A DNA stretch of 63,711 nucleotides, counting the filler, from Collodictyon triciliatum (Eukaryota), in the NCBI GenBank assembly GCA_043381765.1. It is 8 parts of 8 records of this genome, joined end to end, with 100 filler letters (N's around TTAATTAATTAA, not from the genome) between each part and the next. Parts side by side here need not be neighbours in the genome. Positions count along the whole stretch, not along the records: positions 43,549 to 52,865 come from JBHJMP010003072.1; 7 more parts are not named here. One strand, written 5' to 3'. The notes beneath the pieces are model-generated. The model saw only the letters and a list, made by a program, of their open reading frames with translations, did no database searches and was not told the DNA's origin. The position numbers and the translations under genes are program-made. Within the stretch, counting starts at the first letter, position 1. Each line of letters begins with the position of its first letter. This document shows positions 4,164-62,378 of this stretch, one piece after another.

Positions 4164-4521
4164 NNNNNNNNNNNNNNNNNNNNNNNNNNNNNNNNNNNNN
4201 NNNNNNNNNNNNNNNNNNNNNNNNNNNNNNNNNNNNNNNNNNNNNNNNNNNNNNNNNNNNNNNNNNNNNNNNNNNNNNNNNNNNNNNNNNNNNNNNNNNN
4301 NNNNNNNNNNNNNNNNNNNNNNNNNNNNNNNNNNNNNNNNNNNNNNNNNNNNNNNNNNNNNNNNNNNNNNNNNNNNNNNNNNNNNNNNNNNNNNNNNNNN
4401 NNNNNNNNNNNNNNNNNNNNNNNNNNNNNNNNNNNNNNNNNNNNNNNNNNNNNNNNNNNNNNNNNNNNNNNNNNNNNNNNNNNNNNNNNNNNNNNNNNNN
4501 NNNNNNNNNNNNNNNNNNNNN
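4164..4521. other. Scaffold gap (N run without linker)
   Basis: About 358 N with no TTAATTAATTAA spacer. Confidence 0.95.
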
Positions 4522-9320: not shown

Positions 9321-9420
9321 NNNNNNNNNNNNNNNNNNNNNNNNNNNNNNNNNNNNNNNNNNNNTTAATTAATTAANNNNNNNNNNNNNNNNNNNNNNNN
9401 NNNNNNNNNNNNNNNNNNNN
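9321..9420. other. Artificial contig spacer N44-TTAATTAATTAA-N44
   Basis: An identical 100-nt construct with stops in all six frames recurs seven times in the window. Confidence 0.97.
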
Positions 9421-14621: not shown

Positions 14622-15113
14622 TTGCCCTTATTCGATTCAAAGTGCAGCAAGGTTATGCCATACAAGAGACAAGATGGGAGCGCATGGGAGAGAGCAAAGG
14701 CGGGTAGGGGAAGACACTACCGCGGAGAGGGTAGCACTGGAAAGAAATCGATGATAGCGAGCTGGTCAGGTGGGCGTCCCAACTGGTTGATTGGCTGCGT
14801 GGGTAGCAGGGGTTGGATATGTTGTGGGAGATATCGCACGATACATTCCCACATCTCTCTTCGCTTGCGGTCAGAGTAGCGAAGAATGCGGGCATGTTTC
14901 AGCAGACTGTTCAGGAAGCTGTATTGCACGAGGCTCTCAAGCCTGGCTACATTGATTTCTCGTTCGGGTGAATCATTAAAGCGAGAGAATGCACGCACAC
15001 TCCATAAGGACCACAGCATATGTCCCCTTGTGACTGTCCAGAGTATTCTAGAGTCGTGGGTCATTTGGTATTGTGGGCCAAACAGGATGTCTGACGCGCT
15101 GAGACGACTGGGA
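14622..15113 (-). mobile_element. L1/Tx1-like non-LTR retrotransposon, ORF2 C-terminus and 3' UTR (family 2), cut by contig end
   Basis: ORF 14717-15064 (RGHMLWSLWSVRAFSRF...QYSFLNSLLKH...YSDRKRREMWE) is homologous to the ORF2 tail at 24141-24579. The 3' end CTTTGAATCGAATAAGGG is shared with 39883-40097. Confidence 0.75.
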
Positions 15114-15213
15114 NNNNNNNNNNNNNNNNNNNNNNNNNNNNNNNNNNNNNNNNNNNNTTAATTAATTAANNNNNNNNNNNNNNNNNNNNNNNNNNNNNNN
15201 NNNNNNNNNNNNN
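15114..15213. other. Artificial contig spacer
   Basis: N44-TTAATTAATTAA-N44. Confidence 0.97.
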
Positions 15214-16848: not shown

Positions 16849-18300
16849 TTTTTTTTATTCTTCCTTTCAACTTTGTGCAGGACCGTGGGGATGTTGGCTT
16901 TGGTTCGCTAGCCATCGTTTTTATGGGCGCTGCTTGTCGGCCGGGTGGCGGAGATGAAGTCGGTAATCAGGAATTGCATCCTGCGGTTTGGCCTGTAGCC
17001 TGGTCTTGTGCTTGCATGAGGGATACAAGGTGAGGTTTAATCTCTTTCTTAACTTCTTTCCACATATCTCTTCTCACGGCGTCTGATTAGTAGAGAACGT
17101 GCAGGTGGCGAAGAAAGCTATTGAGGAAAGAGATTTGTACGATGTCATCCAGTCTGTTATCAGGAATGGATGGCTGGTTGTTGAGTCTTGCTTTGCGTGA
17201 GTATATGCGAGCTATCCACATAGCCTTATCAAATGGCCTCGCGTCACTGCCCAGATTTTTTTTTGCATCTGGACGCAGCTGTTGCAGAGGCCCAAATATC
17301 GCCTGGATTGGGCCAATAGTTGCAGTCATCTTGAGTGTCAGTCTAAGAATCTCACCGCCCGTTTCGTGCTGATGCTTCCTATGTTAACCACATTCACGTC
17401 AGTCTGAATGGGTAGTTTAAGTGGGTATTTCTTTCGGGGTTTGGAGATGCGCTGCTCTTGGGTCTTGCGATGTGCGGGCTTGTCCGGTGTTGGAGGTGGA
17501 GGGCTCGAGTGCGAGGATTCTGAAGAGGAACCGAGATTTCCTTCCATGTCGTCGTCGCTGTCGCTGTATGCGCGTATCTGCTGTGAGTCTTGTGGGCTCA
17601 GTTGTTGCCTGGCCTTGGCTTCCTTGACCCCGTTGCTGCTTGTCTGCTTGGCAGGTGTATTCTTTTGCGGGGCTTTTACTTGTCGTTCGTTGTTCGCGGC
17701 TGGCGGACGCTCTTTGAGGATGCGCTTTGGACACTTTTTACCCATGACTGTAAACTTTGCAGGGAGCTGGTTCTTGTGACAAAGAAGCTTCACCACCGCC
17801 GTGTCTGTGAAGAAGCCTTTGTCCTTTTTGATCTCCACGTGGGTCGGTCTGAACGGCTTCAGCTCCTCACGAAGGAGTTGCGGCCACACGTCCAGCGGTA
17901 GTTGGTAGACATCACCGAGGTCTCTGTTGGTTTACTTCTAGCGAAGCTGATCGTAATATCGCTCAAACTTACCTGCTTCAGCTCCAGAAGCTTTCGGGCG
18001 TTTTCTGCAGTGCGGAAGGCAATCAAGCAAAGGCCTTCGCTGTCCGGTAAGCGCAATTGGGTGGACTCTTCTCAAAGTTTGTTCGCTTTCAAGAAGCGAG
18101 CACATCTGTGAGTCTGCGGCCTTGTTCTTGTTGTAAACGACTTACTCGACCCCGTGCAAAAATACTGTCCGCTCAGACAGACTTGCAGATGGCTTCCTTG
18201 CACGGGTCTTTCTAGACTTGCGCGCAACCCAGACCTTTTACACTCGTCGCGGTTGGCAATCAAGAAGCAGAGCTACAGGTTGCGAAGCTATTTTATATTC
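16849..18300 (-). mobile_element. Internally deleted L1/Tx1-like element (ORF1 joined to ORF2 C-terminus and 3' UTR), frameshifted
   Basis: ORF1-like RRM region (LIAFRTAENARKLL ... LPLDVWPQLLREELKPF ... LPAKFTVMG) and a S/P-rich tail. At about 17370 it switches to sequence matching the ORF2 tail at 23915-24430, and it ends in an A-tail at 16849. Confidence 0.8.
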
Positions 18301-18598
18301 CGCGATCGCTACTGATTTCCTGGGTTGGACTTTTTTTTCAGAATTGGGGCATATTGATATTGAATTTTTAAACACATTTTAAAATTATTAGCTTAAATTT
18401 TTCTATGGAATATCATGATATGTTGAAATGGTAAAAGAGTCGTTCTTAATGTCTGTAATAATTTCTTGGACATCGAAACACTGTACTATTTATTCTTTTA
18501 TCACTTCTTCCTTCGAAATATTTTATTTTTGGTGATTAAAGCTAATAGTTTGTGTATTGTATGAGCCTGGGCAGCAACAATTACTATAAAACGATTAA

Positions 18599-19768
18599 TC
18601 AAGCGGAACAAAACTCATGGACTTTGCGAGGTTGCCCATTCACCCAGAACATCTCAACATCAGAAGTAATTATTGGGGTTTTCGTAAGCATGGTGTCCCC
18701 AACATATTTTTTTATCAAGTGTTCTTTTGACGGACCTCCAGGAAAATGGACTAACATGGGCCTGGTCTGTGTCGGTCGATATTCTAAGTATTCAACATGG
18801 GTCCTTACCCATGGACAATGCCTCTTACAATATTTTTCTATATGACCCATTACCAACGTGAATTGAACACAGTGATCGAGATAAAATTTAGTTGATGCTT
18901 GAAGGTATGCTTCATGGAAATACATTTGGTCGTCTGTTCCGTTCAATTTTAGTTTTTTTATCTTATTGCATATTGGACCAAGAAAATCCTTTAATGCTCC
19001 AGCATAACCGATGTATGATCCAGAATTCACATAACGTGGCCTACGTTAAGAATATATTAATCAGTTTAATTTAAGTATTATTGTCCCTCAATTGTTCGAG
19101 GGTTTTTTACTGGTTAAGAGAATGAGTCTTCCTCTTCAATAAATACCATCTATGCCATGCAATTGAATTTCTGGTGTTTAATAATAGTTAAATTAAAAAT
19201 ACCCTTCTGTAAAGCATTTGTTCTGGGAATTTATTTTGTCATAGGCACGAAAGCAATTAATTTTTCGAATTTTTCCATCAGAATCATATTGGGAATTAAT
19301 TTCTTTTGGATAACAATTATGTTCAACGGACAGTAGGATGTTTGTTTTCTTTTCCTTAAAAAGTTTAATCATCAATTCAAATTCGTTGTTAAAAATGACG
19401 TCGAGGCAATCAGCAAAAACGATAATCGTATCATTCGAGTATCTCTGAATTGCTTCGTTCATGATAAATAATTTATCCCTGTAATATACTCTGCTTGCTC
19501 CAAATTTCAATACGTGCAAAAGTGCCCCATATGACTGAGAAGACTTGATGAAATCGCAAAAGTGGTAGCGGTTGGTGTTACAAACAGATAGAACAACAGC
19601 GTTGTATTTTTGAACAGCTTTGTCATATGCGATGGTGTAATTTTCAGATATGTCTAACGGAGGGTCAAAAAATTCTTCAACAGTGTTCTCACTTCTTTCA
19701 GGCCACATTGAGAGTATCAGTGCAGCTATTGAAATTAAAAAAATGCAGAAAAGCTTCCTAGACTCCAT
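18599..19768 (-). CDS. Stand-alone PLOD-type (lysyl hydroxylase N-terminal) glycosyltransferase domain protein, type II membrane; copy 1
   Basis: Two exons with an N-terminal hydrophobic anchor. Motifs VLSVCNTN..FCDFIKSS, IVFADCLDVIF (DxD-like), SVEHNCYP, PRYVNSGSYIGYA, DDQMYF, LDH and PMLVHFPG parallel the PLOD GT motifs. Confidence 0.72.
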
Positions 19769-34027: not shown

Positions 34028-34127
34028 NNNNNNNNNNNNNNNNNNNNNNNNNNNNNNNNNNNNNNNNNNNNTTAATTAATTAANNNNNNNNNNNNNNNNN
34101 NNNNNNNNNNNNNNNNNNNNNNNNNNN
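34028..34127. other. Artificial contig spacer
   Basis: N44-TTAATTAATTAA-N44. Confidence 0.97.
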
Positions 34128-39251: not shown

Positions 39252-39882
39252 TGCTTGGAATACCAGTCAATTGCCTGTTTGCGAAATCGATTCAGTTTCA
39301 ACAAAAAAAAAAAAGGAAAAAAAAAGGAAAAAAAAAGGAAAGAAGAGTGCCAGTTGTCCTTCAAATTGTGAAAGATATACATAAGGGAAAAAGAAAAAGA
39401 AAAGATCAACGAATAAATTGAGACAAAAATGCCTTCAAATATCACAGGGAAAAAATGGTGCCTCGAAGAAAAGAATATAGAGGTGCGGCCATACAGAAGA
39501 GAAAGACAAACAAAAACAGCGATCTTCAAGCACTGGGATAGATTTTTGCAAGACTCAATGAGCAAGAAAGGGATATTCCAGATTTGTTACATTAATGCGG
39601 AAAATAATATATAATCTAATATAATCATAATTTTGATCAGCATCTCTATTGCATTCCTAGATGAATGGAATATTTCAAAAGATTCACAATCTCTTGCATC
39701 ATCGAAAGCATAAAATGCGATGTAGAAAGTGGCACACTGAACGAACATAGTGCATAAGGTTTGGATGAGGAGAACTGAGGTTTATCATGACTTCTTTCCA
39801 TAATCTATCCAAAAGTGTCCTTTATTTTAACGCTCCCAGGGACTATACTCAAAACCTTTCTATATATCTCTCAAGCATACTT

Positions 39883-40097
39883 CTCCCACATCATATCCAA
39901 CCACTGCTGCCCACACAGCCAATCAACCAGTTGGGTAGCCCACCTGACCGACTCACTATCACTGATTTCTTTCCAGTGCTACCCTCTCCGCGGGAGTTTC
40001 TTCTCCTACTCGCGTTTGCTCTCTGCCATGCGCTCCCACCCCGCCCCTTTGTATGGCATAACCTCGCTACACTTTGAATCGAATAAAGGGGAAAAAA
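39883..40097 (+). mobile_element. 5'-truncated L1-like family 2 insertion with degenerate TSD
   Basis: Close to the reverse complement of 14622-14830. Flanks are ctcaagcatactt (39870-39882) and ctcgagcagactt (40103-40115). Confidence 0.8.
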
Positions 40098-40159: not shown

Positions 40160-41760
40160 GGCCGAGGAAACCGCATTCCCCTCTAGGACAAAAATGAGCC
40201 GTGGATAAGACAGTGGAAAACCTCGGATTGTGTGGTTGGAGGTTTTGTGTTTTGGGTGAAAAGAAAAAGAAAAAGAGAGAAAGTGTTCTCAAACGCAGAC
40301 TATTCTACTCGAGGTGAATCAGCTCCAACGCGATTTCTGGTTGTATTCGAGACTGACAGAAGAGCAGATAAAGTTGTCGGGTCGATGAAAGTACGCACAT
40401 GGCAGTTACTTCTCAAATCGATTCCGACGAGTCCTTTTAACCGTCTATTTCAGACAAGGTTTACATCCTATTTCACTCCACAGGATGAGTCTTTTGAGGG
40501 GACAACGAGTCACTTTCCTTGCGTTTCTTGCTGGGCGACTCAAACAAAAAGAGAAACATAGTTGTTTGTCTGGTATTATCGGAAGTGGCGCTTGACCGTC
40601 CCCTGGCATCGGGACCATGCGTAGCCGGCAGTGGACTTTGCTTAACCGGAGTATGGATACGCGTTTGTGGTTTTAGAAACATACGCTTCTGCTTGCTTGG
40701 TCTGTCCTTAGTGTGAGAAGTTCCAAGCTTGGATTCGACTGGTGGCATTTACACTTGCTCCTTGGTTCTTGGTGCGATGAGCTGGGGCAGGGTAAACGGA
40801 CTATCTTTGGTGGCCGCTGGTTCTTGTGTTGCCTTCGCTTTGGAGTATCCTTTCGGATAAGTAACGAATACTGCCTTGAAGCCTACTGTATTAACCATAT
40901 TCACGCCATTCTGGATGGGTAGTTTAAGGGGGATTTCTTTCAGGGTTTGGTGATAGGCTGCTCTTGGGTCTTGCGATGCGCGGGCTTGTCCGGTGTCGGC
41001 GGTGAAGGGCTCGAGTGCGGGGATTCTGAAGAGGAACCGAGATTTCCTTCCATGTCATCGTCGCTGTATGTGCGTATCTACTATCGCTTTGGATTCAATT
41101 AGGAGTGTGCGTTTATTTGATTTTCCAGCCAGACAAGAGAGGTAAGAGATTTTTTTCTAGACAGCGCAAGAGGCGAAAGGCAAGCAGAAAGCATATTTGA
41201 ACCCAGGCGATGATTGGCAAGCTCAGGCCATCTTTGGAGCCAGACAATAAAATATCAGGTTTTATTGAATAGATGCGCACTAGAGTTTCAAAGTGAGCGA
41301 TATTGATGAGAAGAAGCAAAGACCGCTGCAGCTAACGATTCTCCATATGGGCTCTGTCTCTAGCATGGCCTCGTCTATCTGCTTCAAGAGAAAAGCTTAG
41401 ACGATCTGAGAATAACAAAAGCATTGGAAGTCACAGGAGGAATGACTGCAGAAGGATACATATGGGAGCTAGAAAGGTCACAAGCATTGGGCTCAAGACT
41501 TTGACAGCAAGTTTTCGACGCGATTGTAAAGACCAGCCTTGTGTGCTGTTTGTGTTTGTTGCTTTATTGAAAGGGAATATCGAAAATAGAGGATATATCT
41601 GCGCAGAGAAGGACAAAATAGGACGCTTGAGACGTTGTTGAGCATTCTGCATAGTGGAAGAGATATGAAGCAGAAAGGACAGATGTTCTTCCGTGGCAGA
41701 AGAGAAGGAAGAGAAAATCGTAGAGACCGAAATCCTCATTGCGGCGCAAGGAGAGAATAA
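40160..41760 (-). mobile_element. Rearranged L1-like relic: ORF1 C-terminal half (40160-41080) abutting a decayed ORF2 post-RT fragment (41100-41760)
   Basis: 40895-41080 matches 17380-17580 and continues into basic S/P-rich ORF1 sequence that is missing from the deleted copies. 41100-41560 has WSLQSRRKLAVKVL and KDGLSLP, resembling the post-RT motifs LSLxGR and GGLGLP. Confidence 0.6.
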
Positions 41761-41788: not shown

Positions 41789-42613
41789 TTATCTGTGTTG
41801 TAGAAGCAGGTGGTCAGACCCGTAGGAATGTAGCAAGGTATAACATAAATGATCTAATATTTTTTTTCACAGTTTGAACCACTCAAATCTAAAAGTTTCA
41901 GGAGGTGAAGCAAAGGAGGCTACAAATAGAGAAATGAAAGAAAAACGAAAGAAAAACGAAAGAAAAACGAAAGAAAAACGAAAGAAAAACGAAAAAAATG
42001 AAAGAAAACGAAAGCAAAATGAAAGCAAAATGAAAGAAAAGAAGAAATACTTGAAGTAGGCACGGATGGCAATGGCTGCGCCGACAACAATCAGGGTGAC
42101 GAGAATGTTCATGACGAGGCCGGAGCCGCTGGAAGTGTCGGGAATGGCAGGCCCTGTGGGGACAGGAGCGTCGGCCTTCGCAGGTTTCTTTGGGGTTTCG
42201 GCCTCCTCAGCAGCGCCCTCGATGGTTCCGATCACGTACTTGTTGAGCATGTCGTACGCCTCTTTGGAGTGGCCGATGTCGTCAAACTCTTGCGTGGAGT
42301 CCTTTCCTGCTCGCAGAGAGAAAAGCAAGACAGTGTCGTTTGTTTGTGAACGTGATTTTTGGGTTGTTTTGTTGGGGCATTGTTGTGTTATGTCAGCAAG
42401 TGTCTTGTGTTTTGTTTCTTTGTTTCAATAAAGGGAGTGGTCTTCGGGCTGGAAGGCTTTGTGAGTACCGCCGCGCTCAATGATGACTTCGTCGCCACCC
42501 GGGTGCTCGTCCAGGAAGCTGGTCACGTCGAGGACTTTGCCTTTGTGGACAAACCAGCAGCTGCTGCGGGTGTTGTGGGCACGAACCTCTTCCCAGGTGT
42601 AGACTTTGCTCAT
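41789..42613 (-). CDS. CYB5: Cytochrome b5 (tail-anchored)
   Basis: MSKVYTWEEVRAHNTRSSCWFVHKGKVLDVTSFLDEHPGGDEVII / GKDSTQEFDDIGHSKEAYDMLNKYVIG, with C-terminal TM LVMNILVTLIVVGAAIAI. The stop probably follows a final intron (41789-41791). Confidence 0.95.
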
Positions 42614-43448
42614 CTTGCAGGTGGTTCTGTCTGGTGGCAGGTCTGTTAGTTTGCTGGTATGGATCTGCGCTGGCTCTGTTTGTTTTGTGCCTGCGTGCGA
42701 TTCTTCGGTTCTTGTCTTTTGCCTTGAACATTTTGAGTAACTTCAAGATTTTTTTGCCATATTACACTAACTGAAGGCCTAAACTGTTTTTTGTTTGTTT
42801 TGTTATGTTATGCTTCGTTTTTGTGTTTTTGTTTTGTTTTGTTTTGTTTTGTTTTGTTTTGCTTTGCTTTGCTTTGCTTTGCTTTGTTTTGTTTTTGTTT
42901 AGTCTGCCTTCTATTCTCACAGAAGGGAGCCAAAGGTAGCTGAGTGGATGGCTTCGTTCTGATTCATTTCATCAATCGCAGCGCGGTGTGGGTGATTGTG
43001 GTTGGAAAGGTGTTGTGGTTCATGAGGGCGTGTGGCTTATGACGCAATTGTGGTTTGTTCGGACTTTGGCTAATGTTTCGTCTAAAAATGTATAAATACA
43101 GATGTAGTGATTGTATATTCATTCATAAATGACTATTTTGGATTTTTGTTGGGGCTTTTACACGTCATGGTATTAAATCAATTTTGGAATTTATTTTATT
43201 TTCGGTAAAATCAATTAATTGGTCTCGGAATGGCCATATATATCCAAGACCTGTACTATAAATTAAATATGTGTCTATATATAGAATACTTATTCATTAA
43301 ACGCATTTAGTTGTCACGGAACTAGCATCGATCAGCGCAGATTCAATGTCTATGAACCTGTTTGCAACTCTGTGTTGTGCGGAAAGGGTTTATCAGGATA
43401 AAGAAGCACGCCCAAACAAAAAACAAAAAACAAAAAAACAAAAAAACA

Positions 43449-43548
43449 NNNNNNNNNNNNNNNNNNNNNNNNNNNNNNNNNNNNNNNNNNNNTTAATTAA
43501 TTAANNNNNNNNNNNNNNNNNNNNNNNNNNNNNNNNNNNNNNNNNNNN
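43449..43548. other. Artificial contig spacer
   Basis: N44-TTAATTAATTAA-N44. Confidence 0.97.
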
Positions 43549-44026
43549 CATATCAAAGAGGAGGTCCAATTGAAGGATGTTGATTTTAAAATCAGTATTG
43601 TGTTCTCATTTCGGTAATATATGTGGTATTATGCGAGAACATATTTAATGACCACATTTTTATCCAATTCCTATACCGGTATTCAATTAGTATTAAAAGA
43701 AATGTATTAACACCGACCAGAAATAAACTGATTCATCTCGTCGGGTTTCTCTACATACTATTTCCTATATATACGAATTATGTGTGACCTATCTAGCATC
43801 AATAGATTGATTATTTTGGTTGTATGGTGCATGAGACATATATCAATAGTGATAACAATAAAAAGGATTGAATAAATCAAATATCCAATCAAAGAAATGT
43901 CGATGGAATTCATCACACATTGGGGGATATATTCCAGTAGTTTAAAGATGTTTTTCTGAGCAAACAGCGTGCCCCTTGTATAGTATTCTATTCAAAATAC
44001 TAATTAAGCAAAGGAATCTTGAAAGC

Positions 44027-47000
44027 ATGTCCACAACCGAAGCAAGCACCGAGGCCAACGCCAGCCTTGTCACCGTTGACGAGGTTTGTTTATGCACACA
44101 TTTTTGTAATGATAATTATTTGATGTTTTAGAATTTATCTGATTACTTGCATCAAAAACTGAGCACAGGCGGTTCTCGAATGGGTGAACCATCAGCTGGA
44201 GAAAATCGAGCTCAAGGCGAAGAACATACATGACGACTTCGTGGATGGCTTCTTTTTGGCCATGCTGATTGAGATGATCACCGGAAAGCCTCCGGGAAGC
44301 TACCATTCCCGCTTGTTTGCGTATGATTTCCATTTCCATTTATATGATCCTCAATCAATCTATTCTTCATGATTTGATACTTAATCGCTCCTTTTCAGTG
44401 ACAAAGCGATTGAGGAGGAGGTGCTTGTTGACGAGAATCAAAGACTCATCCTTGATTGGTTTCTTAAATTGAATGTGCCTGACGAGGCTTCTGCTGTTCA
44501 TGGTCGATACAAAGGTTTGCTTGAATTTCCATTTTTTGTTTTGTTTTGTCATCAACCACTAAAAATTTTTATGCACGGATGAAAATTCATTTGTATTACA
44601 GATATCGTTAGTCCCACCATACATCATCTTATTGGAAAAAGTGTTGGTCATTTGGGGAGCCTAGGCGTAACAATATCTTTTTTTATTCCTTTCAATAAGT
44701 TTTTGATTTGATAGCTTGTCTTGGAATTTAAGGCTGGTCATTTAAAAAAATGTAGAAAAAATGTCGTGAGAGGTACGATATTGCCAAGAAGCTCTACGAA
44801 AGAGCGAAGGCTCCGTTTCCGTTTCATGGTTGGAATAAGATCTACTTATATCATCATTTAAATTTTATGCAAATTATTTTGGATTTATCTGTAAAATATG
44901 ATTATAATGATTTATAAAGGCTTCGGTTTGGAAGAAAAAGGCTCTGTCGTGCTCATCCGCACTTGCATTCTTCTTGACAAGGCAATCAATTAATATCAAA
45001 AATGAAAAAAAAATCAAATTCATTCATCTTCTTTTTTGTGAGATATAATCTCAAATCCAAACCAGATGAAGCTTGCTCGTGAAGACCTGAAGGAGAGGCA
45101 ATACAAGAAGTGGAATCCGGCCCCACAAAGATATGTGACCGCGACACCATTGCCATCCATAGTCTTTGATGAGCGTGTCATCCGCGTATTCCTTTCCTCG
45201 ACTTTTCGTGACATGCAGCATGAAAGAGACGAGTTCTTCAAGAATGGAGCCCCTGAGTAAGTCATCCTACTATTTTATTGAATGGATTAAATAAATCAAT
45301 CATTAAAGGTCATTATTCAATCTACTCACAATTTTATTATATACATATCAGGTTGAAAAGACTTGCAAAATCGAAGGGATTGGACCTTGTTTTTATCGAT
45401 TTGCGCTGGGGACTGACTTCTGAGGACAGTAGTGAGGGATGGGTAATCAAATAATAATTACAACCTTCCATATTTTGTGTAATTTTAATGGCATTTGAGT
45501 TCTAAAAAATGGAGAACCCAAATTTCTTCATTTTTCATAGGTTGTGATTCGCTGCCTGGATTCAATTGGAAAATGCCCATACTTTGTGTGCTCTCTTGGT
45601 GCGCGTTATGGCTGGATTCCTGACCAAAGTAAGACTGATTTGAACAAACAAGCCCGCCTTGAGGAGCTGCTGAATACCAAACCTGATGCCACCATGAAGG
45701 ATATTTGGGTGGAATGGCGCAGTGAAACCAATAGCCGCTTCCCTTTTATCAATGGAATGCCTGGGTTGAGTGTGACTGAATACGAGGTGAAATTAATATA
45801 AATGTTTTATTAGGTATTTTTCATCATGGTGAATATTACAGAGAAATTAAAAAAGTCGTTTTCTTGATTAAATTCTGTTCAGATTCAACATGCCTGTCTG
45901 ATTGACAAACCAGCATGCAGCCGCGCATTCTTCTACCTCCGTGATGAACACTATGCTATCCAACATGCCAAGAGCGAGGAAGAAAGGAGGCTGTTCCATG
46001 CTGAAAGCGAAGAGGCTGTAAAGAAATTGGCAGAATTATTTTTATATTTTTCCAGCTATATTAATATTTCTATGAAATGAAATGATTTGATATTGATGTA
46101 TATATGATTCCAGCGTAAAAGACAGGAGGAGCTGAAAGGGAAAGTCATGGCCAAGTTCGGGCATGTTGTTTACAAAGGAGCGTATCAGTATTCGTTCTTG
46201 GTGACCCACCACCTCACCTATGCCATCGAGCGTGACTTTGGAAATCAAATCGTATCTTTTGTTTTGATCAGCAAGGAGACTTCGATATTTATTGGACATA
46301 GAATATATTGTTTATATTTTGTTCAAATCATACCATATACCAGGTGAGAGACCCTGAAGACCAAGCGCAGCACCAGTTCAAGATGCACCGACTGGCTGGG
46401 TTTAGTGGAAGAAAGGAGCTCCTCAAGACAATAACAGAGAAAGTAAGCTGAAAAATAATGGAATTAAAATGACAACATATTTTTTCCCTTTCGTTTGGCT
46501 TTTCTTATAGTTTAAATTTTGTCAGGCTATGAATCAACTCAGCGTAGAGAAGTCCAAAATCATCGTTCTTGCTGCTGAGTCTGGAATTGGTAAGTCGTCG
46601 CTCATGGCTGCTACAGCGAGAGACCTGGAAGGCCTGAAGCATCCTGGACTGAACATCTTTTTCCATTTTGTCGGATGCACTAATCTCAGCAACTACGTGG
46701 AAAGGTTTGTTCTTTTCATTTCTTTCTGATTTAAAGATAAGCTTTATATTAATTTTGCGGCTTTTTATACAAATATACATTTTTGAAGTGTTTCGATTCG
46801 CTTCTGGAATCTGGTCACAAACACAAAAGACTTTACGGTGCTAAAGAACCACGAAACTGGTATTTTATTTCTGAATATTGTCTTATTTTCATCTTTCATT
46901 TGAAATTTCATGAAAATATTGAAAACTTTTTTATTTTTCTCCCAGAATACATAAAAGAGGGACTACATGGCTTGCTGAAAATGATTCAAGAGAAAAACAA

Positions 47001-50000
47001 GTAACATTTGCGTCCATTCCAAGTATTCAAATTTTATTGGTTCGCTGTTGAAATAGCAATTTATTTAATTATTATCATTTTTAGAGACGAAAAGTTTGTC
47101 TTCATCATCGACGCCATCAATCAAATCTATCAATCGCAAGGAACTCCAGCCCCGCATCTACTGAGCTGGTTGCCAAAAGAAACACCAGCAAATGTAGCCA
47201 TGGTTGTTTCTACCATTGATACTCATGAATCTTGCACGGTATTTATTGCAAAAATTCTATTTGTTCATCCTGTAATTGTGAATGATTTAGGCGGGATTCA
47301 ATAAAAAAAAATTTTTTTATCAATTACAAGTCTGCCGAAAAAAGTGGGTTGCAGCTGATTCCTGTCGCCAAGTTGACCAAGGATGAAGTTAAGGATAGTG
47401 TCAAAACATTTCTCAAACGCTATGACAAGACTCTGAACGAAAAGCAAGTTGGAATGATTTTGGCTGACTTGAAAGATACTGGTGAGACATTATTTTCAAA
47501 CATCATATATTTAGATGAATATTTTCATGGAATGGTTTAGTTTCTAATTATCTGAATTTATTATAGGCCATCCACTCTATCTTCGCATCATCTTGGATGA
47601 AGTCAGAGTCTTTGGTGTCTATGAGAAGCTTGATGATGAATTATTGTCGCTGCTTTCGACAAATGGTGTCATTGAGCTTTACACTCTCATTATCCAACGC
47701 TGGCAACTGAAGTTTGACAAGGAATGTGTGTATTGGTTTCATATTGCAAACAATAAAAAGAATCACATTTTCGACTTTTTATAAATAGCTCTTTGTTTAC
47801 GTTGCAGTTTCCTTGTCTGATGGAAAAGGGACAGATAAGGTCGACTATGTCTCCCTTTCGATGAAGGTTCTTTTTGTTTCTCGCATCGGTATGAGTGAAA
47901 GCGATTTGGACAAGTATATCAAAGATGCTGTCGGTACAGGATTTAGGCTTTCTGAATGGTTTGCTTATTTCCAAATTTATTATGCAGTTTCCCTCTTTTT
48001 TTTTCAGATATTTATCCAATTGTTTATTCAAACAGGAAATCGTTCTTTTTTACCCTCATCGAGTCGCTTTTCGTCCGCAATGGAAGGTTGATGTTATTTC
48101 TCATTTCTTATTATGTATATTTGCGCGAGCTCCATTATTTTGTTTGATAAAATTTGGATATTTTTTTTATTGTTATAGATACATGTACTTCCACCAGCTG
48201 CTTTTGGAGACCACCGAAAAAGTCTACTTCACTGAAAACCAAGAGATGGAAAATACACATAAAAAATATGGAAAATGGTTGTTTGGGCAACACTCTGAGA
48301 CAGTCGATGCGGATGAGGAACTTGTTGCTGAGATTTGCTACCAGCTTCTGAAAGGAAATTCGTTTGACTTGCTTGTCGAATACATGAAGCAAAACCATGT
48401 AATCAAAATTTATTCGCTATATCTTATTTTGAAATTTTATTGAATTATTTTTAGTCATTATTCAATGATTTTCACTCTTTTCTATACCCACAGGTAATCA
48501 TTATCATGCTCAGTGGTCGTTATCGCTATGAGTTCTTTACATGCTGGAGAGCAATCAACACTAGTGGAGCAGCAAACTACAAAGATGTCTATGGAAGTCT
48601 TGCTAAGGTAAAATAGATATGGTTTAATATTTGAAGGTTATCAGTACATTACAGCTCAAAATTGTTGCTTATAGTCATTGATAATATTTTAGTTATTTAT
48701 TCCATATTTTCCAGTCTTTGGACAAAGTAGGAGACTTGCTTGTTGAGTTTTTCTTGGAGTCTTTTGAGAATTCGTTTCTGTTGTCTGTTCTGAATGTACG
48801 TCTTGGAAAGCACCAATCAGAAGGTTTGCAAATCCCTGTATTCGGATAATTTATACCATGAAGAGAAATTTTATGTAGACATTGAGTCTAACTTTATATC
48901 AAGATTCAAAGACTGCTGATTACCTGAGTCTCGGTCGTGTCTTCAAGAACCTACAAAAGTGAAGAAACTTACATAACCAATCATATTTACCTTACCAATA
49001 CATCAATAAATGATTCTGAATCTGCAGAAGAATTATTTTCTAATATTAAAATAAAACAGCTGGGCTGAATCCATGGTGCACTATAAGAAATGCCTTGATT
49101 CAATTGAGAAAAATGAGCGAAATTCTCTGCGCATTGCCTCAATCCACGAGGAGATGGGAATCGTATATCAGCAACAAGATAGGTGAATCTTGTCGTCCAC
49201 TTCAAAATTAGATAAAGTTTACGAAAATATTTATTCTAAGTTACTATTTGCATAGAATTCATGAAGCCCTTGAGGAATACAAGATTTCACTGGACTTTAG
49301 AATCGAAAAGCTGGGCGAGAATAACTTGCAAGTCGCCCAGTCATATGACCGCTTCGGTGACATGTATATGAAACAGTCAAAGTAATACTCCAAAGATTTT
49401 AAATTTTTGACATTTATTAGGGTGTGATTAAAATGCACATTCGCAACAATGTGTAAATGCTGAATAATTTTTGTAATAGGATAGAGCAAGCTATGACTGA
49501 ATACAGAAAGGCCATGGAAATTCGCCGAAATAAACTTGGCAACGACCATCCTCTTGTCGCTATATCGTACCAGAACCAAGGTCATGTCTCTCTGGCTGAG
49601 AAAAAGTAACATATAATATGATTCAAGCTGATTTTCAATATCACCACGCATTTATTTTATGAAAAATCATCTGATTGAATCACTAAGGTTTGGAGAATCT
49701 ATTGAAAATTACGAAAAAGCCATATCAATTTTTGAAAAATCGCTGGGAGTAAACCATGCTTCTGTTGCCTCGACAATTCAGTTTATTGCGATAGTTCATC
49801 TTGCTAGTGGAAGGTTATAAAATTCATCTACAGTTTCTTTCATAAATTCTCCAGACTCAAAATTTTTTTTTAGGGAAACAGAAGCCTTGAGCTCATTAAA
49901 GCAATCGCTGGATGTTTTCATCTCTGCTCTTGGAGAAAATCATCCAAACGTTGTTTCCTGCTACGAAATGATTGGAGACACCAGCCACAATTTGAATGAG

Positions 50001-52520
50001 TAACTCTAATAATTACTCTTTTTCATCATGGTGAGTTGTCTTTTGAAAAAAAAATAATTATCTATCTATTCTATCTTAGTTTTAAGGGCGCTCTGGAGGT
50101 CTATACAAAGACACTGGATATTCGCATGAGAACACTGGGCGAAAATAATGCTGATTATGCGACTTCCCTTGAAAATGTTGGTAGAACAAACTTTGAGCTT
50201 CAAAGGTAACTTCATTTCTTTAAATGGTATTTCTGACTGAATCATTTTAAAAATCACTAATTTGAATGAATATAGATTGGACCAAGTTCTTGAATACTTC
50301 CAGAAGGCAGCTGCTATCAGGAAGAAGTCAAGAACTGTTTTGTCGCTGAAGAACACTCGTCAAATCGACAAAATTATCCGATTCATCAAGGACAAGAAAG
50401 AGTATGGAATAGCTCTTTTGCTTTACAAAACAGCAGCTGTTAGACACGGAGAGAAGTCATCTTATGAAAACTGGAGCAGTTGGGCATTATGTGAGACTGT
50501 ACACAAACACTGCAAAGAAAATAAGCAGCATAACGAAGCAGTGGCATTCTGGGCTGATATGAAAGACAGATTTGCTGATAAACTCGGATGGATTCATCCC
50601 AGAGCATTGAACTCGTGCGAATACTTGTCCTTCCATTCAAAAGAAATCGGAATCAACAAAGAGCCTGTCGAGTTTACAAGAGTCAAGGAATTCATCGATG
50701 AAACACTTGATGATTCAAAACTGGATGACAATTGGAATCATGAGCAAATAATTGTATCATTATTCAAGATTGTCTACATGTCAAAGACTGATGAAAGCAA
50801 ATCAAAGGCTGCGTCTAATGCAATCACAATTTTGAATTTCATGAATGTTTCGTTCAGTGGAATGGATTTATCAAACATCAAAATTCCACATGCAAATCTC
50901 AGTAGCTCAATCGTTGATAGTGCAAATTTTACTGGTGCCAACTTGGATGGTGTTGACCTCACGAATTCGATGCTTGGTGATTGTATTTTTGATAATTCAA
51001 ATATGAATAATATGAAATTCGGGATTCCTCATGATAAGTTAGAAGGCCATACGTGGGGTGTCAAAAGTGTTTGCAGCGTTCAAGGGCCGAATGGTGAAAA
51101 GTGGTTGGCTTCTGGAAGTAGTGATAAAACCATACGTATTTGGGATGTAATCACAGGGAACCGAATCAAAACATTAGAAGGCCATACGTGGGATGTCGAG
51201 AGTGTCTGCAGCATTCAAGGACCAAAAGGTGAAAGTTGGCTGGCTTCTGGAAGTAGTGATAAAACCATACGTATTTGGGATGTAGCCACAGGAGACCAAA
51301 TCAAAACATTAGAAGGGCACACAAGTGGTGTCAACAGTGTCTGCAGCATTCAAGGACCAAAAGGTGAAAGTTGGTTGGTTTCTGGAAGTAGTCGTGATAA
51401 AAAAACATGGATTTGGGATGTATCCACAGGAGAACAAATCAAAATATTAGAAGGGCACACAAGCAGTGTCAACAGTGTCTGTGCTATTTCAGGACCAAAT
51501 GGTGAAAATTGGCTGGCTTCTGGAAATAATGATAAAACAATATGTATTTGGGATTTAGCCTCAGAATTACAGATCCAAACATTACGAGGGCATGAATCGG
51601 TTGTTTTGAGTATTTGCAGCATCCAAGGACCGAATGGTGAAAGGTGGTTGGCTTCTGGAAGTTATGATAAAACAATATGTATTTGGGATGTAGCAACAGG
51701 GACTCAAATCCAAATTATAAAAGGTCATTATGGGGTTGTTTTGAGTGTTTGCAGCATCCAAGGACCGAATGGTGAAAGGTGGTTGGCTTCTGGAAGTAAT
51801 GATTTGATGGTGCATATTTGGGATGTAGTTACAGGAGACCAAATTCAGACATTAAAAGGGCATAAATATAACATCACTAGTACATGCAGTATCCAAGGAC
51901 CGAATGGCGAAAGCTGGTTGGTTTCTGGAAGTGGTGATACAAAAATATGCATTTGGAATGTAGCTACAGGAAACCAACTCAAAGCATTAAGAGGACACAC
52001 AAGAGAGTCCAAGGTTGTTCGAAATATTCAAGGACCGAATGGTGAAAACTGGCTGGCCTCTGAAAGTGATGATACAACTATACGTATTTGGGATGCAGCC
52101 TCAGGAAACCAAATGCATAGTCTGCAAAAGTCAGAAGTGACCTACACCCAAGGAAAATACCTTGTCAAGAAAGATAAATCAGAAGAAATCATCGCAGTAT
52201 TTAATAGAGCATGTGATGTGATGACCTTGATTGATACCAAGAGAATCCAAGACGCGAAGGCAGTCCAGATTATCGGCCCAAGAAAGTTGGAGGGTGGGAG
52301 TATTCAAATCAGAAACGTTGCAGGATTGAGTCGATTCAACAAATATCTTCTTCTTTCAATCGGTGCTGCCTCCTTTGATGCAGACTTTGTTGCATATTGT
52401 GAGCTGGGTAAGATTTCCAAGTTCCAGTCTCAAATGATTGCTGAGTGCTATGAAAATGGATGGGGTGTTGAGAAGGATGCTGAGAAAGCAGCTAAGTTGA
52501 GATGGAAAACTAAATCCTAA
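44027..52520 (+). CDS. NLR-like STAND protein: CH-like domain - DUF4062 - NACHT/NPHP3-type P-loop NTPase - TPR array - pentapeptide repeats - 8 WD40 - Sel1 repeat
   Basis: About 30 exons. CH-like: VLEWVNHQL..DDFVDGFFLAMLIEMITG..ENQRLILDWF. DUF4062: IRVFLSSTFRDMQHERD..FIDLRWG..CPYFVCSLGARYGWIP..SVTEYEI. Walker A AESGIGKSSL, Walker B FVFIIDAINQ, GHPLYLRIILDEVRVFG. Then 42-aa TPRs, NAITILN plus pentapeptides, GH...WD repeats and CYENGWGVEKD. Confidence 0.85.
51039..52121 (+). repeat. Eight tandem coding WD40 repeats of about 135 nt with high mutual similarity
   Basis: The unit LxGHxxxVxSVCSIQGPxGExWLASGSxDKTIxIWDVxTGxQIxT is repeated eight times, and the similarity is visible at DNA level. Confidence 0.95.
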
Positions 52521-52704
52521 TATGGTAGGTAATGCTAATAAATGCATATGGAGCTATATCTTTAACTTTTACTATTATTGACTAAAAGATAATACAGGTT
52601 CTTTCCATCAGACCTTACCGCCTTTTTCATGACTCTCATGAAAAAAAGAATAAACTATAAAGATGAAATCGCGTCTGCTTGATGTCTACTTTATCCTTGA
52701 GCTT

Positions 52705-52865
52705 TTTTTACTTTTTTTTTACTTTTTTTACTTTCTTTACTTTTTTTTTACTTTTACTTTTTTTACTTTTTTTACTTTTTTTACTTTTTTTACTTTTTTT
52801 ACTTTTTTTACTTTTTTTTACTTTTTTTACTTTTTTTACTTTTTTTACTTTTTTTACTTTTTTTA
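52705..52865 (+). repeat. Low-complexity (T6-7AC)n repeat at contig end
   Basis: Seen directly. Confidence 0.9.
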
Positions 52866-52965
52866 NNNNNNNNNNNNNNNNNNNNNNNNNNNNNNNNNNN
52901 NNNNNNNNNTTAATTAATTAANNNNNNNNNNNNNNNNNNNNNNNNNNNNNNNNNNNNNNNNNNNN
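52866..52965. other. Artificial contig spacer
   Basis: N44-TTAATTAATTAA-N44. Confidence 0.97.
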
Positions 52966-54498: not shown

Positions 54499-54691
54499 CC
54501 TTTTTTTTTTTTTTTTTTTTCGTTTTTTTTTTTTTCCCTTTCTTCTTCTTTCCTACCTCGCAGTAAAACGAACCAAAAGAGAAAAAAGAAAAAGACATAT
54601 CTCCCACCTGATAAAGACACCTTTTGAACGTTAAACCACCCAGCCCGCTGATCCCACACCAAGCAGGACGCAAGCACAATCTTCCGCGCAC

Positions 54692-55989
54692 ATGGACAAG
54701 AAGCTGGAGCCGAGCCTGATCACCCAAGGCAGACTCATTGGAAGCGGGCGACGAAGCTGCGCGTTCGAAGGGCTTTTTGGGGCCCAAAAGATATGCGTCA
54801 AGCGCTTCCTTGTGAGCTGGCTCAGCGCAAGGTCGCTGGAAGTTCTGGAGCCAGTCTTTGTGGCGGTGGAGTCACTCCGCTCGAAGCATATCCTCCGGTG
54901 GCACGGCTGGTTTGAGCATGAAGGCCAGGTCCACTTTGCGGTGGAGTTTGCGCCATGCGGCAGCGTAGAAAGGAGGATTCAAGAGGAGGGCGCGTTGAGT
55001 GAGGCAATGGCAATCAGATATGCGCTCCACGGGGCGCGTGCGATGAAAGCACTCTACTCGATGAGGCCGGGCATCTGCTATCGCCACTTTAACCCGGCGC
55101 AGATGATGGTGATGGAAGACGGCTCTGTCAAGATGGATGTGTGCGGGACAGAAGTCTTTGCCAGCACAGGAGACGGCCTCGATGATGAATGTGATGCTGG
55201 AGACGGCGTCTTTAGTGGGAAGATTCAGTTCTTTGCCCCGGAACTTGTGGAGGGCGAATCAGCGCACAATGAAAAGACGGATGTCTATGCGTTTGCTGTA
55301 TCGCTGCTCTACATGCTGACTGGAGCCCTTCCGTTTCTTGAAAAGAACGTTGCGCAGTATGGCTTGGCTGTTGTGGGTGGCCAAAGGCCTCCTATCCCGC
55401 AACATATTCCGCCGCCAATCCAGACACTTCTGCAGCGTTGCTGGGGTGCAAATCCCGCCGAGAGGCCGCGTTTTGCAGACATTGTATCGATGTTGGAATC
55501 AATAGCAACGCCGCTGCCTGGTCTGTATTTATTTCATCTCGGTTCGATGACTGTGGACGTATTTCTCGTTATATATATCTTTTCCTGTTTGTGTTGATGC
55601 TGAATTATCATTGTAAATATGTTGGTGTATATTATTTAGCTGAATCCGAGACAGCAGCAACTCTCAATAGCCTTGGTCAACCATCCTTGCATTCACCAGA
55701 GCCTGCTGCATCCGAGCGTTCGGCTCCGAAGCAAATCAAGGATATGGACACCACGCAGTTGGTTGCGTGGCTTGGTCAGTGGAAAGTGGATATGTTTACG
55801 AAGCAGGTTGAGAGGCTTGGTCTGCATGGGGCAGACTTTCTTTCCTTAACAGAGGCCGATATCGACGACCTTCCTGTCAAACTGCGAATCGTCCAGCGCA
55901 AAACGGTCCTTATGCTGATACAATCTGCAAAGAACGGTGCGCAGATAGGAATAGATGACTTTGCTTCTGAAGTGAGCAAAGTGCTTTAA
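54692..55989 (+). CDS. TKL-like pseudokinase with C-terminal SAM domain
   Basis: IGSG, ICVK, VEFAPCGS, FFAPE, KTDVYAF, TGALPF, RPPIP and CW..NPAERPRF. HRD is replaced by YRH and DFG by DVCG. One intron (55521-55639), then SAM-like MDTTQLVAWL..LHGADFLSLTEADIDDL. Confidence 0.8.
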
Positions 55990-62278: not shown

Positions 62279-62378
62279 NNNNNNNNNNNNNNNNNNNNNN
62301 NNNNNNNNNNNNNNNNNNNNNNTTAATTAATTAANNNNNNNNNNNNNNNNNNNNNNNNNNNNNNNNNNNNNNNNNNNN
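62279..62378. other. Artificial contig spacer
   Basis: N44-TTAATTAATTAA-N44. Confidence 0.97.

Follow-up and report, generated by a model that had tools for sequence, protein, structure and literature searches.

Six symmetric phase-2 TPR exons in a putative TIR-like/NACHT-type STAND gene of Collodictyon triciliatum: a probable ancient exon duplication fixed in number

The locus and its exon array

We analysed a 63,711-nucleotide stretch of DNA from the freshwater protist Collodictyon triciliatum (assembly GCA_043381765.1), referred to here as the window. It joins eight parts of eight records, with 100 filler letters between each part and the next; positions 43,549 to 52,865 come from record JBHJMP010003072.1. 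Its DNA is eukaryotic, has a G+C content of about 35% and contains short introns of the GT-AG type. A large plus-strand gene, extending at least from 44169 to 52520, is predicted to encode a signal transduction ATPase with numerous domains (STAND). The order of its predicted domains is a calponin homology (CH)-like domain, DUF4062 (TIR-like), a NACHT-type STAND ATPase, tetratricopeptide repeats (TPRs), pentapeptide repeats and eight WD40 repeats. The TPRs are encoded by an array of consecutive short exons, which is the subject of this analysis.

The array consists of six internal exons on the plus strand. TPR exon 1 (49060–49182) is 123 nt long, and TPR exons 2 (49256–49381), 3 (49480–49605), 4 (49688–49813), 5 (49874–49999) and 6 (50080–50205) each measure 126 nt. 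The introns preceding exons 1–6 end in acag, atag, atag, taag, ttag and ttag (all AG), and those following them start with gtgaat, gtaata, gtaaca, gttata, gtaact and gtaact (all GT). When joined, the six exons form a single open frame, and the other two frames contain many stops. In the open frame, the first base of an exon closes a codon and its last two bases start the next one, which places phase 2 at both ends of all six exons. A sequence-only reading of this DNA had proposed the same six coordinates, lengths and phase 2-2 borders, and these are exact; the TPR peptide it quoted, KAMEIRRNKLGNDHPLVAISYQNQG, is located in exon 3.

The introns flanking the array (48959–49059 and 50206–50275) are also in phase 2, giving seven phase-2 introns in succession, with lengths of 101, 73, 98, 82, 60, 80 and 70 nt. 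In our 25-exon model of the gene, the 17 remaining introns are distributed 8/4/5 over phases 0/1/2. The chance of finding phase 2 in seven of seven introns is about (5/17)^7 = 2 × 10−4, with the equal exon lengths left uncounted, and the run of phase-2 introns is therefore not a chance pattern. The exon-side bases at the array junctions (marked by a slash) are AG/A, AA/G, AA/G, AG/G, GA/T and AG/A. Because all six exons are phase 2-2 and five are of equal length, the loss, gain or swap of an exon keeps the frame. The earlier proposal that any array exon could be dropped or doubled in frame thus follows arithmetically from the phases.

Repeat type and helix register

Five of the six exon peptides match the Pfam family TPR_12 (exon 2, E = 0.013; exon 3, 2.4e-5; exon 4, 1.1e-5; exon 5, 7.9e-5; exon 6, 2.8e-5), in all five cases from profile positions 20–22 to 54–59. 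These single-exon scores lie under the family cut-off because one exon covers roughly half of the 77-residue model. TPR_10 matches four of the six peptides, with E values from 4.9e-5 (exon 3) to 0.081, starting at profile position 18–20 of 42. Exon 3 also matches TPR_NPHP3 (E = 1e-4). The peptide of the 123-nt exon 1 has no Pfam match at E ≤ 0.1, and its inter-helix loop is divergent, without the G-x-x-H-P motif. P0001, a homologous protein derived from a transcript of Diphylleia rotans, matches TPR_12 with E = 3.5e-40 and TPR_10 with E = 1.9e-24.

An AlphaFold model of the P0001 array, computed from a 44-row alignment, has a predicted local distance difference test score (pLDDT) of 97.2 and a predicted template modelling score of 0.89, and contains 14 helices in seven pairs; a single-sequence model with a pLDDT of 39 was discarded. 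The top solved matches of the model in Foldseek are the TPR domains of the kinesin light chains (KLCs) KLC1 and KLC2, led by KLC1 chain 7ai4_A (E = 1.2e-10, target-normalised TM score 0.77, 23% identity). The array shares with kinesin light chain the fold, the 42-residue period and the matching Pfam families, TPR_10 and TPR_12. The protein itself is no kinesin light chain; it has no heptad-repeat region, and its TPR array forms part of a STAND architecture.

The model of P0001 positions the exon borders within the repeat. At each of the seven junctions, the residue concerned occupies position 3 of the three-residue A–B turn, just before helix B. Each exon therefore comprises a helix B, the G-x-x-H-P loop and the helix A that opens the following repeat. 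Exon 1 contributes helix B1, its loop and helix A2. The first helix A is supplied by an upstream exon at 48904–48958 on the plus strand (55 nt, ending in phase 2), which matches helix H2-16 in the model; the final exon supplies the last helix B, that of the seventh TPR. As modelled, the exon is one 42-residue KLC-type TPR period, half a repeat out of register. This refines the earlier description of one KLC-type TPR per exon: the period and the KLC type are borne out by Pfam and Foldseek, but the exon is not the structural unit, given that it spans helix B and the next helix A.

Homologues and support for the exon model

Full-length relatives were found only among the EukProt transcripts of D. 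rotans, where they form a multigene family of at least six members (P0001, P0025, P0026, P0042, P0043 and P0137). Two short metagenome proteins are closer to the window gene, P0138 with 76% and P0143 with 65% identity, indicating that the source organism is a relative of the transcript organism and not the same. Two scans of metagenome contigs, one with an alignment of three D. rotans proteins and one with window positions 50277–51050, revealed no related locus.

The 25-exon model runs from 45066 to the stop codon at 52520 and is open over 1793 codons. It is colinear with P0001, with 47.5% identity over 1809 columns. The alignment is gap-free across all seven array junctions, from 18 residues ahead of unit 1 through the six units and into the last exon, which supports the exact splice sites. 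In P0043, the open frame stops one residue past TPR unit 1 (aligned to window 49177–49188). As judged from the sequence, this stop appears exactly as expected for read-through of a phase-2 intron starting with GTRA, and in the window the corresponding read-through would yield AGG TGA. The observation is a hint of a common intron position after unit 1 in the window gene and D. rotans.

Metagenome DNA contigs from four runs were compared with window positions 43600–52600. The freshwater runs contain identical DNA pieces as well as pieces that are 85–99% similar, and one identical contig spans 49678–49862, over TPR exon 4. Among the joints listed, contigs of relatives retain the exons and bypass six predicted introns, joining 45262 to 45345, 45449 to 45532, 45791 to 45881, 47242 to 47328, 48403 to 48492 and 50207 to 50297. 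Such a pattern is what introns that diverged between conserved exons would produce. The TPR exons are thinly covered, and removal of a whole TPR exon is absent among the 15 joints listed out of 27, which is uninformative either way.

Taken together, these data make it very improbable that the exon model is an artefact in which GT/AG pairs were read into a non-coding or decayed region. Such an error is conceivable insofar as the support for the splice sites is indirect. Against it stand the 1793 codons without a stop, the colinearity with a transcript-derived protein that leaves the TPR junctions gap-free, and the conservation of exons, with bypassed introns, in the DNA of relatives.

Number, order and age of the repeat units

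The sequence-only reading had suggested that the array allows combinatorial diversification of a sensor. We compared the exons with each other and with their counterparts in the homologues, and the results do not support this suggestion. In register, the five 126-nt exons share 36–49% of their bases (mean 44%), as compared with 26 ± 4% for random coding pieces of the gene, and 20–39% of their residues. The proportion of synonymous differences among the array exons is 0.63–0.89, which amounts to saturation, and the duplications are ancient. Neither Tandem Repeats Finder nor a second repeat finder picked up the array exons as repeats. There are no dead exons in the array introns, which at 60–101 nt are too short to hold a 126-nt exon. 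Other TPR exons were sought with the six exon peptides by tblastn against the 63.7-kb window; nothing beyond the array scored below E = 0.1, the best match outside it having E = 0.12.

Complete arrays have six units in five of five cases: the window gene and the D. rotans proteins P0001, P0025, P0026 and P0042. P0137, which is 5′-truncated within the array, was left out of the unit counts. Unit lengths in the five complete arrays are 41/42, 42, 42, 42, 42 and 42 residues, and the sole indel is a single residue in unit 1. For 21 of 24 units, the best match in another protein is at the same position, and identity is 0.40 between units at the same position versus 0.24 between units at different positions. 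We also built a tree of the 30 units from the window gene and the D. rotans proteins, in line with the exon-level phylogeny that had been proposed for detecting shuffling among paralogs. The position label requires five changes on this tree, which is the minimum; the mean after shuffling is 19.9, and none of 200 shuffles reaches five. Units T1, T4, T5 and T6 each form a single group, with support values of 98/99, 91/83, 92/86 and 96/95, respectively. Grouping is thus by position. As far as these five arrays show, the outcome is the static one that the sequence-only reading had itself named as counting against its suggestion. P0001 and P0039, which are Trinity isoforms of a single D. rotans gene, align gap-free over 2619 residues.

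Domains of the host gene

Domains were called per exon or on homologues. The CH-like upstream exon or exons (44169–44477, plus strand) were placed by tblastn with residues 189–288 of P0001 and 272–321 of P0043. Pfam CH matches this region with E = 1e-4, under the family cut-off, and in homologue P0043 the CH region has matches to CH domains from plectin and alpha-actinin, with E of about 1e-5. The DUF4062/TIR-like exons follow on the same strand at 45066–45256, 45352–45442 and 45541–45786, and were identified by Pfam DUF4062 and by similarity to P0001, to which the region is about 60% identical. Pfam DUF4062 hits two of the exons (E = 4.8e-4 and 4.7e-5), each alone under the cut-off. The matching region of P0043 aligns to the solved TIR-like chain of TEP1 (11gz_A) with E = 3.4e-15; exon 45541–45786 alone, compared with the sequences of the Protein Data Bank, has no match at E ≤ 1. 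We take DUF4062 to be the TeTIR domain, a name used in a preprint discussed below, in whose text the Pfam name has no occurrence. The first DUF4062 exon reaches further 5′, to about 45058, and the ATG at 45066 is consequently not the true start codon.

The predicted NACHT-type STAND NTPase and the helical region behind it occupy 46511–48823 on the plus strand, in approximately 11 exons that are colinear with P0001. The Walker A motif GIGKSS lies in an exon that ends at 46704 and has two candidate acceptors, giving a start at 46511 or 46526. This P-loop exon shows weak Pfam matches to NPHP3_N (E = 0.0052), NACHT (E = 0.028), nSTAND3 and nSTAND1, and no Pfam match to NB-ARC. Precomputed annotation of the homologue P0043 lists PF05729 (NACHT) and PF20703. 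The exons at 47808–47958, 48036–48086 and 48179–48398, also on the plus strand, were placed with the help of P0001. The middle one, 51 nt long and flanked by phase-2 introns on both sides, was found only through P0001.

The last exon (50276–52520, plus strand) is covered by one open frame of 759 aa. It carries the helix B that completes the seventh TPR, then a helical linker, the pentapeptide and WD40 repeats, a C-terminal tail and the stop codon. The pentapeptide repeats are located at about 50830–51030 (Pfam Pentapeptide, E = 3.7e-8). In P0137, the helical linker that follows the TPR array is present twice, as two stretches matching window 50277–51080, which represents a module duplication 3′ of the TPRs. 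As predicted from the sequence, the architecture of the whole protein resembles that of NOD-like receptors (NLRs).

Copy number of the WD40 repeats

The WD40 array (51039–52114, plus strand) comprises eight repeats of 135 nt within a single exon, and Pfam WD40 covers it in eight stretches (E = 4.9e-61). As DNA, it is a 135-nt tandem repeat of 7.9 copies with 77% matches, in which repeats 1 and 2 are 88% identical. Synonymous distances between the repeats are 0.25–1.09. The ratio of nonsynonymous to synonymous change (dN/dS) is 0.31–0.89, and there is thus no overall excess of replacements. Counted with a hidden Markov model built from the repeats of the window gene, the number of WD40 repeats is 8 in the window gene, 19 in P0001, 12 in P0025, 11 in P0026 and 6 in P0012. 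Among the metagenome contig joints listed inside this array, some step 258–267 bases backward and others leave out 141 or 683 bases; some of these distances are close to one or two repeat lengths. Either differences in repeat number or errors of assembly may account for such joints. What varies in copy number within the family is the intron-less, single-exon WD40 array and not the TPR exons.

Other features of the window

A protein kinase gene is located at 54635–55989 on the plus strand (Pkinase, E = 1.9e-23), 3′ of the STAND gene in window coordinates and richer in G+C (48%). A cytochrome b5 domain exon lies at 42425–42742 on the minus strand. A local duplication on the minus strand (16854–19819 and 20816–24290) holds two copies of a PLOD-type glycosyltransferase with 73–76% identical DNA. 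Its flanks are 85–93% identical (16854–18096 versus 22744–24290), and a third copy of one segment, 69% identical, is present at 40968–41136. An inverted repeat of 168 nt (14664–14831 and 39882–40049) has arms that are 87% complementary and 25 kb apart in window coordinates, both in G+C-richer stretches close to runs of N. Paired runs of 44 N with 12 bases between them occur at 9321–9420, 15114–15213, 24588–24687, 34028–34127, 43449–43548, 52866–52965 and 62279–62378. Beginning with the second pair, their spacing is about 9.4 kb, often next to simple repeats, and they look like a masking or assembly feature rather than biology. A run of 358 N is found at 4164–4521.

Discussion

One repeat period per symmetric exon is the classic trace of exon duplication. 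We read the array as the product of an ancient tandem duplication of an exon together with its intron, subsequently fixed at six internal exons, and put the probability of this reading at roughly three in four. The ancestral unit, bounded by phase-2 introns within the A-B turn, would have encoded the stretch from helix B of one TPR, across the loop between repeats, to helix A of the following one. Repeated copying of this exon-plus-intron unit would have generated a seven-hairpin, KLC-type solenoid over eight exons. In the TIR-like (DUF4062) STAND protein, this solenoid has the predicted NACHT-type ATPase on its N-terminal side and the pentapeptide and WD40 repeats on its C-terminal side. The array would thereafter have been fixed in number and order. 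It is most likely spliced constitutively, and it probably acts as a rigid arm or a binding surface of defined length.

Several points weigh against this reading. In the unit tree, T2 and T3 do not resolve as single groups and require two changes each, and 3 of the 24 units have their best match at another position. Number and order were compared on proteins of one related species, D. rotans, and every full-length homologue comes from one transcriptome, making for a narrow sample of lineages. The helix register was modelled on the homologue P0001 and carried over to the window protein by the gap-free alignment, and constitutive splicing is an assumption.

An alternative origin is that the repeats arose inside one exon and that introns were then gained independently, at a protosplice site shared by each repeat. 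Most of the exon flanks at the junctions do resemble a protosplice site, and the adjoining WD40 array demonstrates that intron-less repeat expansion is possible in this gene. The seven introns are also unequal in length and were not reported as repeats; their lack of similarity does not discriminate, as introns of this age lose similarity under both models. Seven separate gains at an identical codon position and in an identical phase are less parsimonious than the copying of one unit. We consider intron gain unlikely, although it is the least unlikely of the alternatives, and infer an origin by duplication.

A different function has also to be weighed, in which the symmetric exons would be cassette modules that diversify a sensor combinatorially, either because exons are skipped or because paralogues shuffle and duplicate them, as has been proposed for the NB-ARC-TPR genes of brown algae. 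This would be in line with the phase 2-2 borders and common exon length that always keep the frame, with the NLR-like architecture, with the size of the D. rotans gene family, with the Ectocarpus precedent of the same 126-nt exon size, and with alternative splicing of NB-TPR genes (Teng et al. 2023, as cited in the available text of PMC11378527). We nevertheless find it quite unlikely. The five complete arrays agree in having six units that group by position, synonymous sites among the exons are saturated, the introns are too short for a 126-nt dead exon, no further TPR exon was detected in the 63.7 kb, and two isoforms of a D. rotans homologue align without a gap. More improbable still is a version in which the six exons are regulated cassettes, whose skipping would shorten the TPR arm by whole periods. 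Such use would be feasible, since the offset register means that a skipped exon still leaves a helix A joined to a helix B. If true, skipping would alter how far apart the NACHT ring and the WD40 sensor lie and how they are twisted relative to each other, and a single gene would provide a small isoform repertoire in a protist far from brown algae. It would also suggest that the exon-per-repeat design of STAND receptors is convergent or very old. An ancient duplication, followed by fixation of the array, is the explanation we prefer.

The exon-per-repeat precedent invoked by the sequence-only reading is real. Zambounis et al. (2012, PMC3341825) describe, in the portion of the text available to us, 124 TPR exons of 126 nt or 42 aa in 13 NB-ARC loci of Ectocarpus. 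As in those genes, a STAND NTPase is followed here by a TPR array with a 42-residue period equal to the 126-nt exon (here five exons of 126 nt and one of 123 nt), and the exons are symmetric, meaning that a change in exon number stays in frame. In contrast to Ectocarpus, as far as that text goes, the NTPase appears to be NACHT-type and not NB-ARC, with a DUF4062/TIR-like domain in front, and WD40 and pentapeptide repeats follow the TPRs. The same text describes the Ectocarpus exon as one 34-residue TPR plus linker, whereas the exon here is offset by half a repeat. If that description is literal, the Ectocarpus introns interrupt the repeat at another place, and the two arrangements have separate origins. 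The signs of shuffling it gives for Ectocarpus, namely inactivated exons within introns and arrays so variable that paralogy is obscured, were sought here and not found.

The predicted overall layout is that of a group of TeTIR-NACHT STAND proteins, TEP1, NWD1, NWD2, TTC41 and NPHP3, in which, according to the part of the preprint available to us (bioRxiv 10.64898/2026.09.21.753143), a TIR-like domain and a NACHT-type ATPase precede WD40 repeats or TPRs. In the window gene, too, the TIR-like domain immediately precedes a predicted NACHT-type ATPase, and WD40 repeats and TPRs lie on the C-terminal side. The match of P0043 to the TEP1 chain and the TPR_NPHP3 and NPHP3_N hints from the window exons point in the same direction. 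Unlike that family, as presented there, the window gene has both TPRs and WD40 repeats, separated by pentapeptide repeats, as well as a CH-like domain nearer the N terminus.

Like fungal NLRs, the gene combines a predicted NACHT domain with mutually similar WD40 repeats whose number differs among homologues. Fungal NLRs with internally conserved WD40/TPR repeats were reportedly described by Dyrka and co-workers in 2014. The similarity between WD40 repeats is lower here than is reported for the fungal cases, and the parallel bears on the WD40 array and not on the TPR exons.

In brown algae, 126-nt TPR exons have been associated with the diversification of receptors. Exons of that size and symmetry are found here in an unrelated STAND gene of a freshwater protist without signs of shuffling, and we conclude that exon symmetry taken by itself predicts diversification poorly. 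The gene is also an example of a putative TIR-like/NACHT receptor in which TPR, pentapeptide and WD40 repeats occur together.

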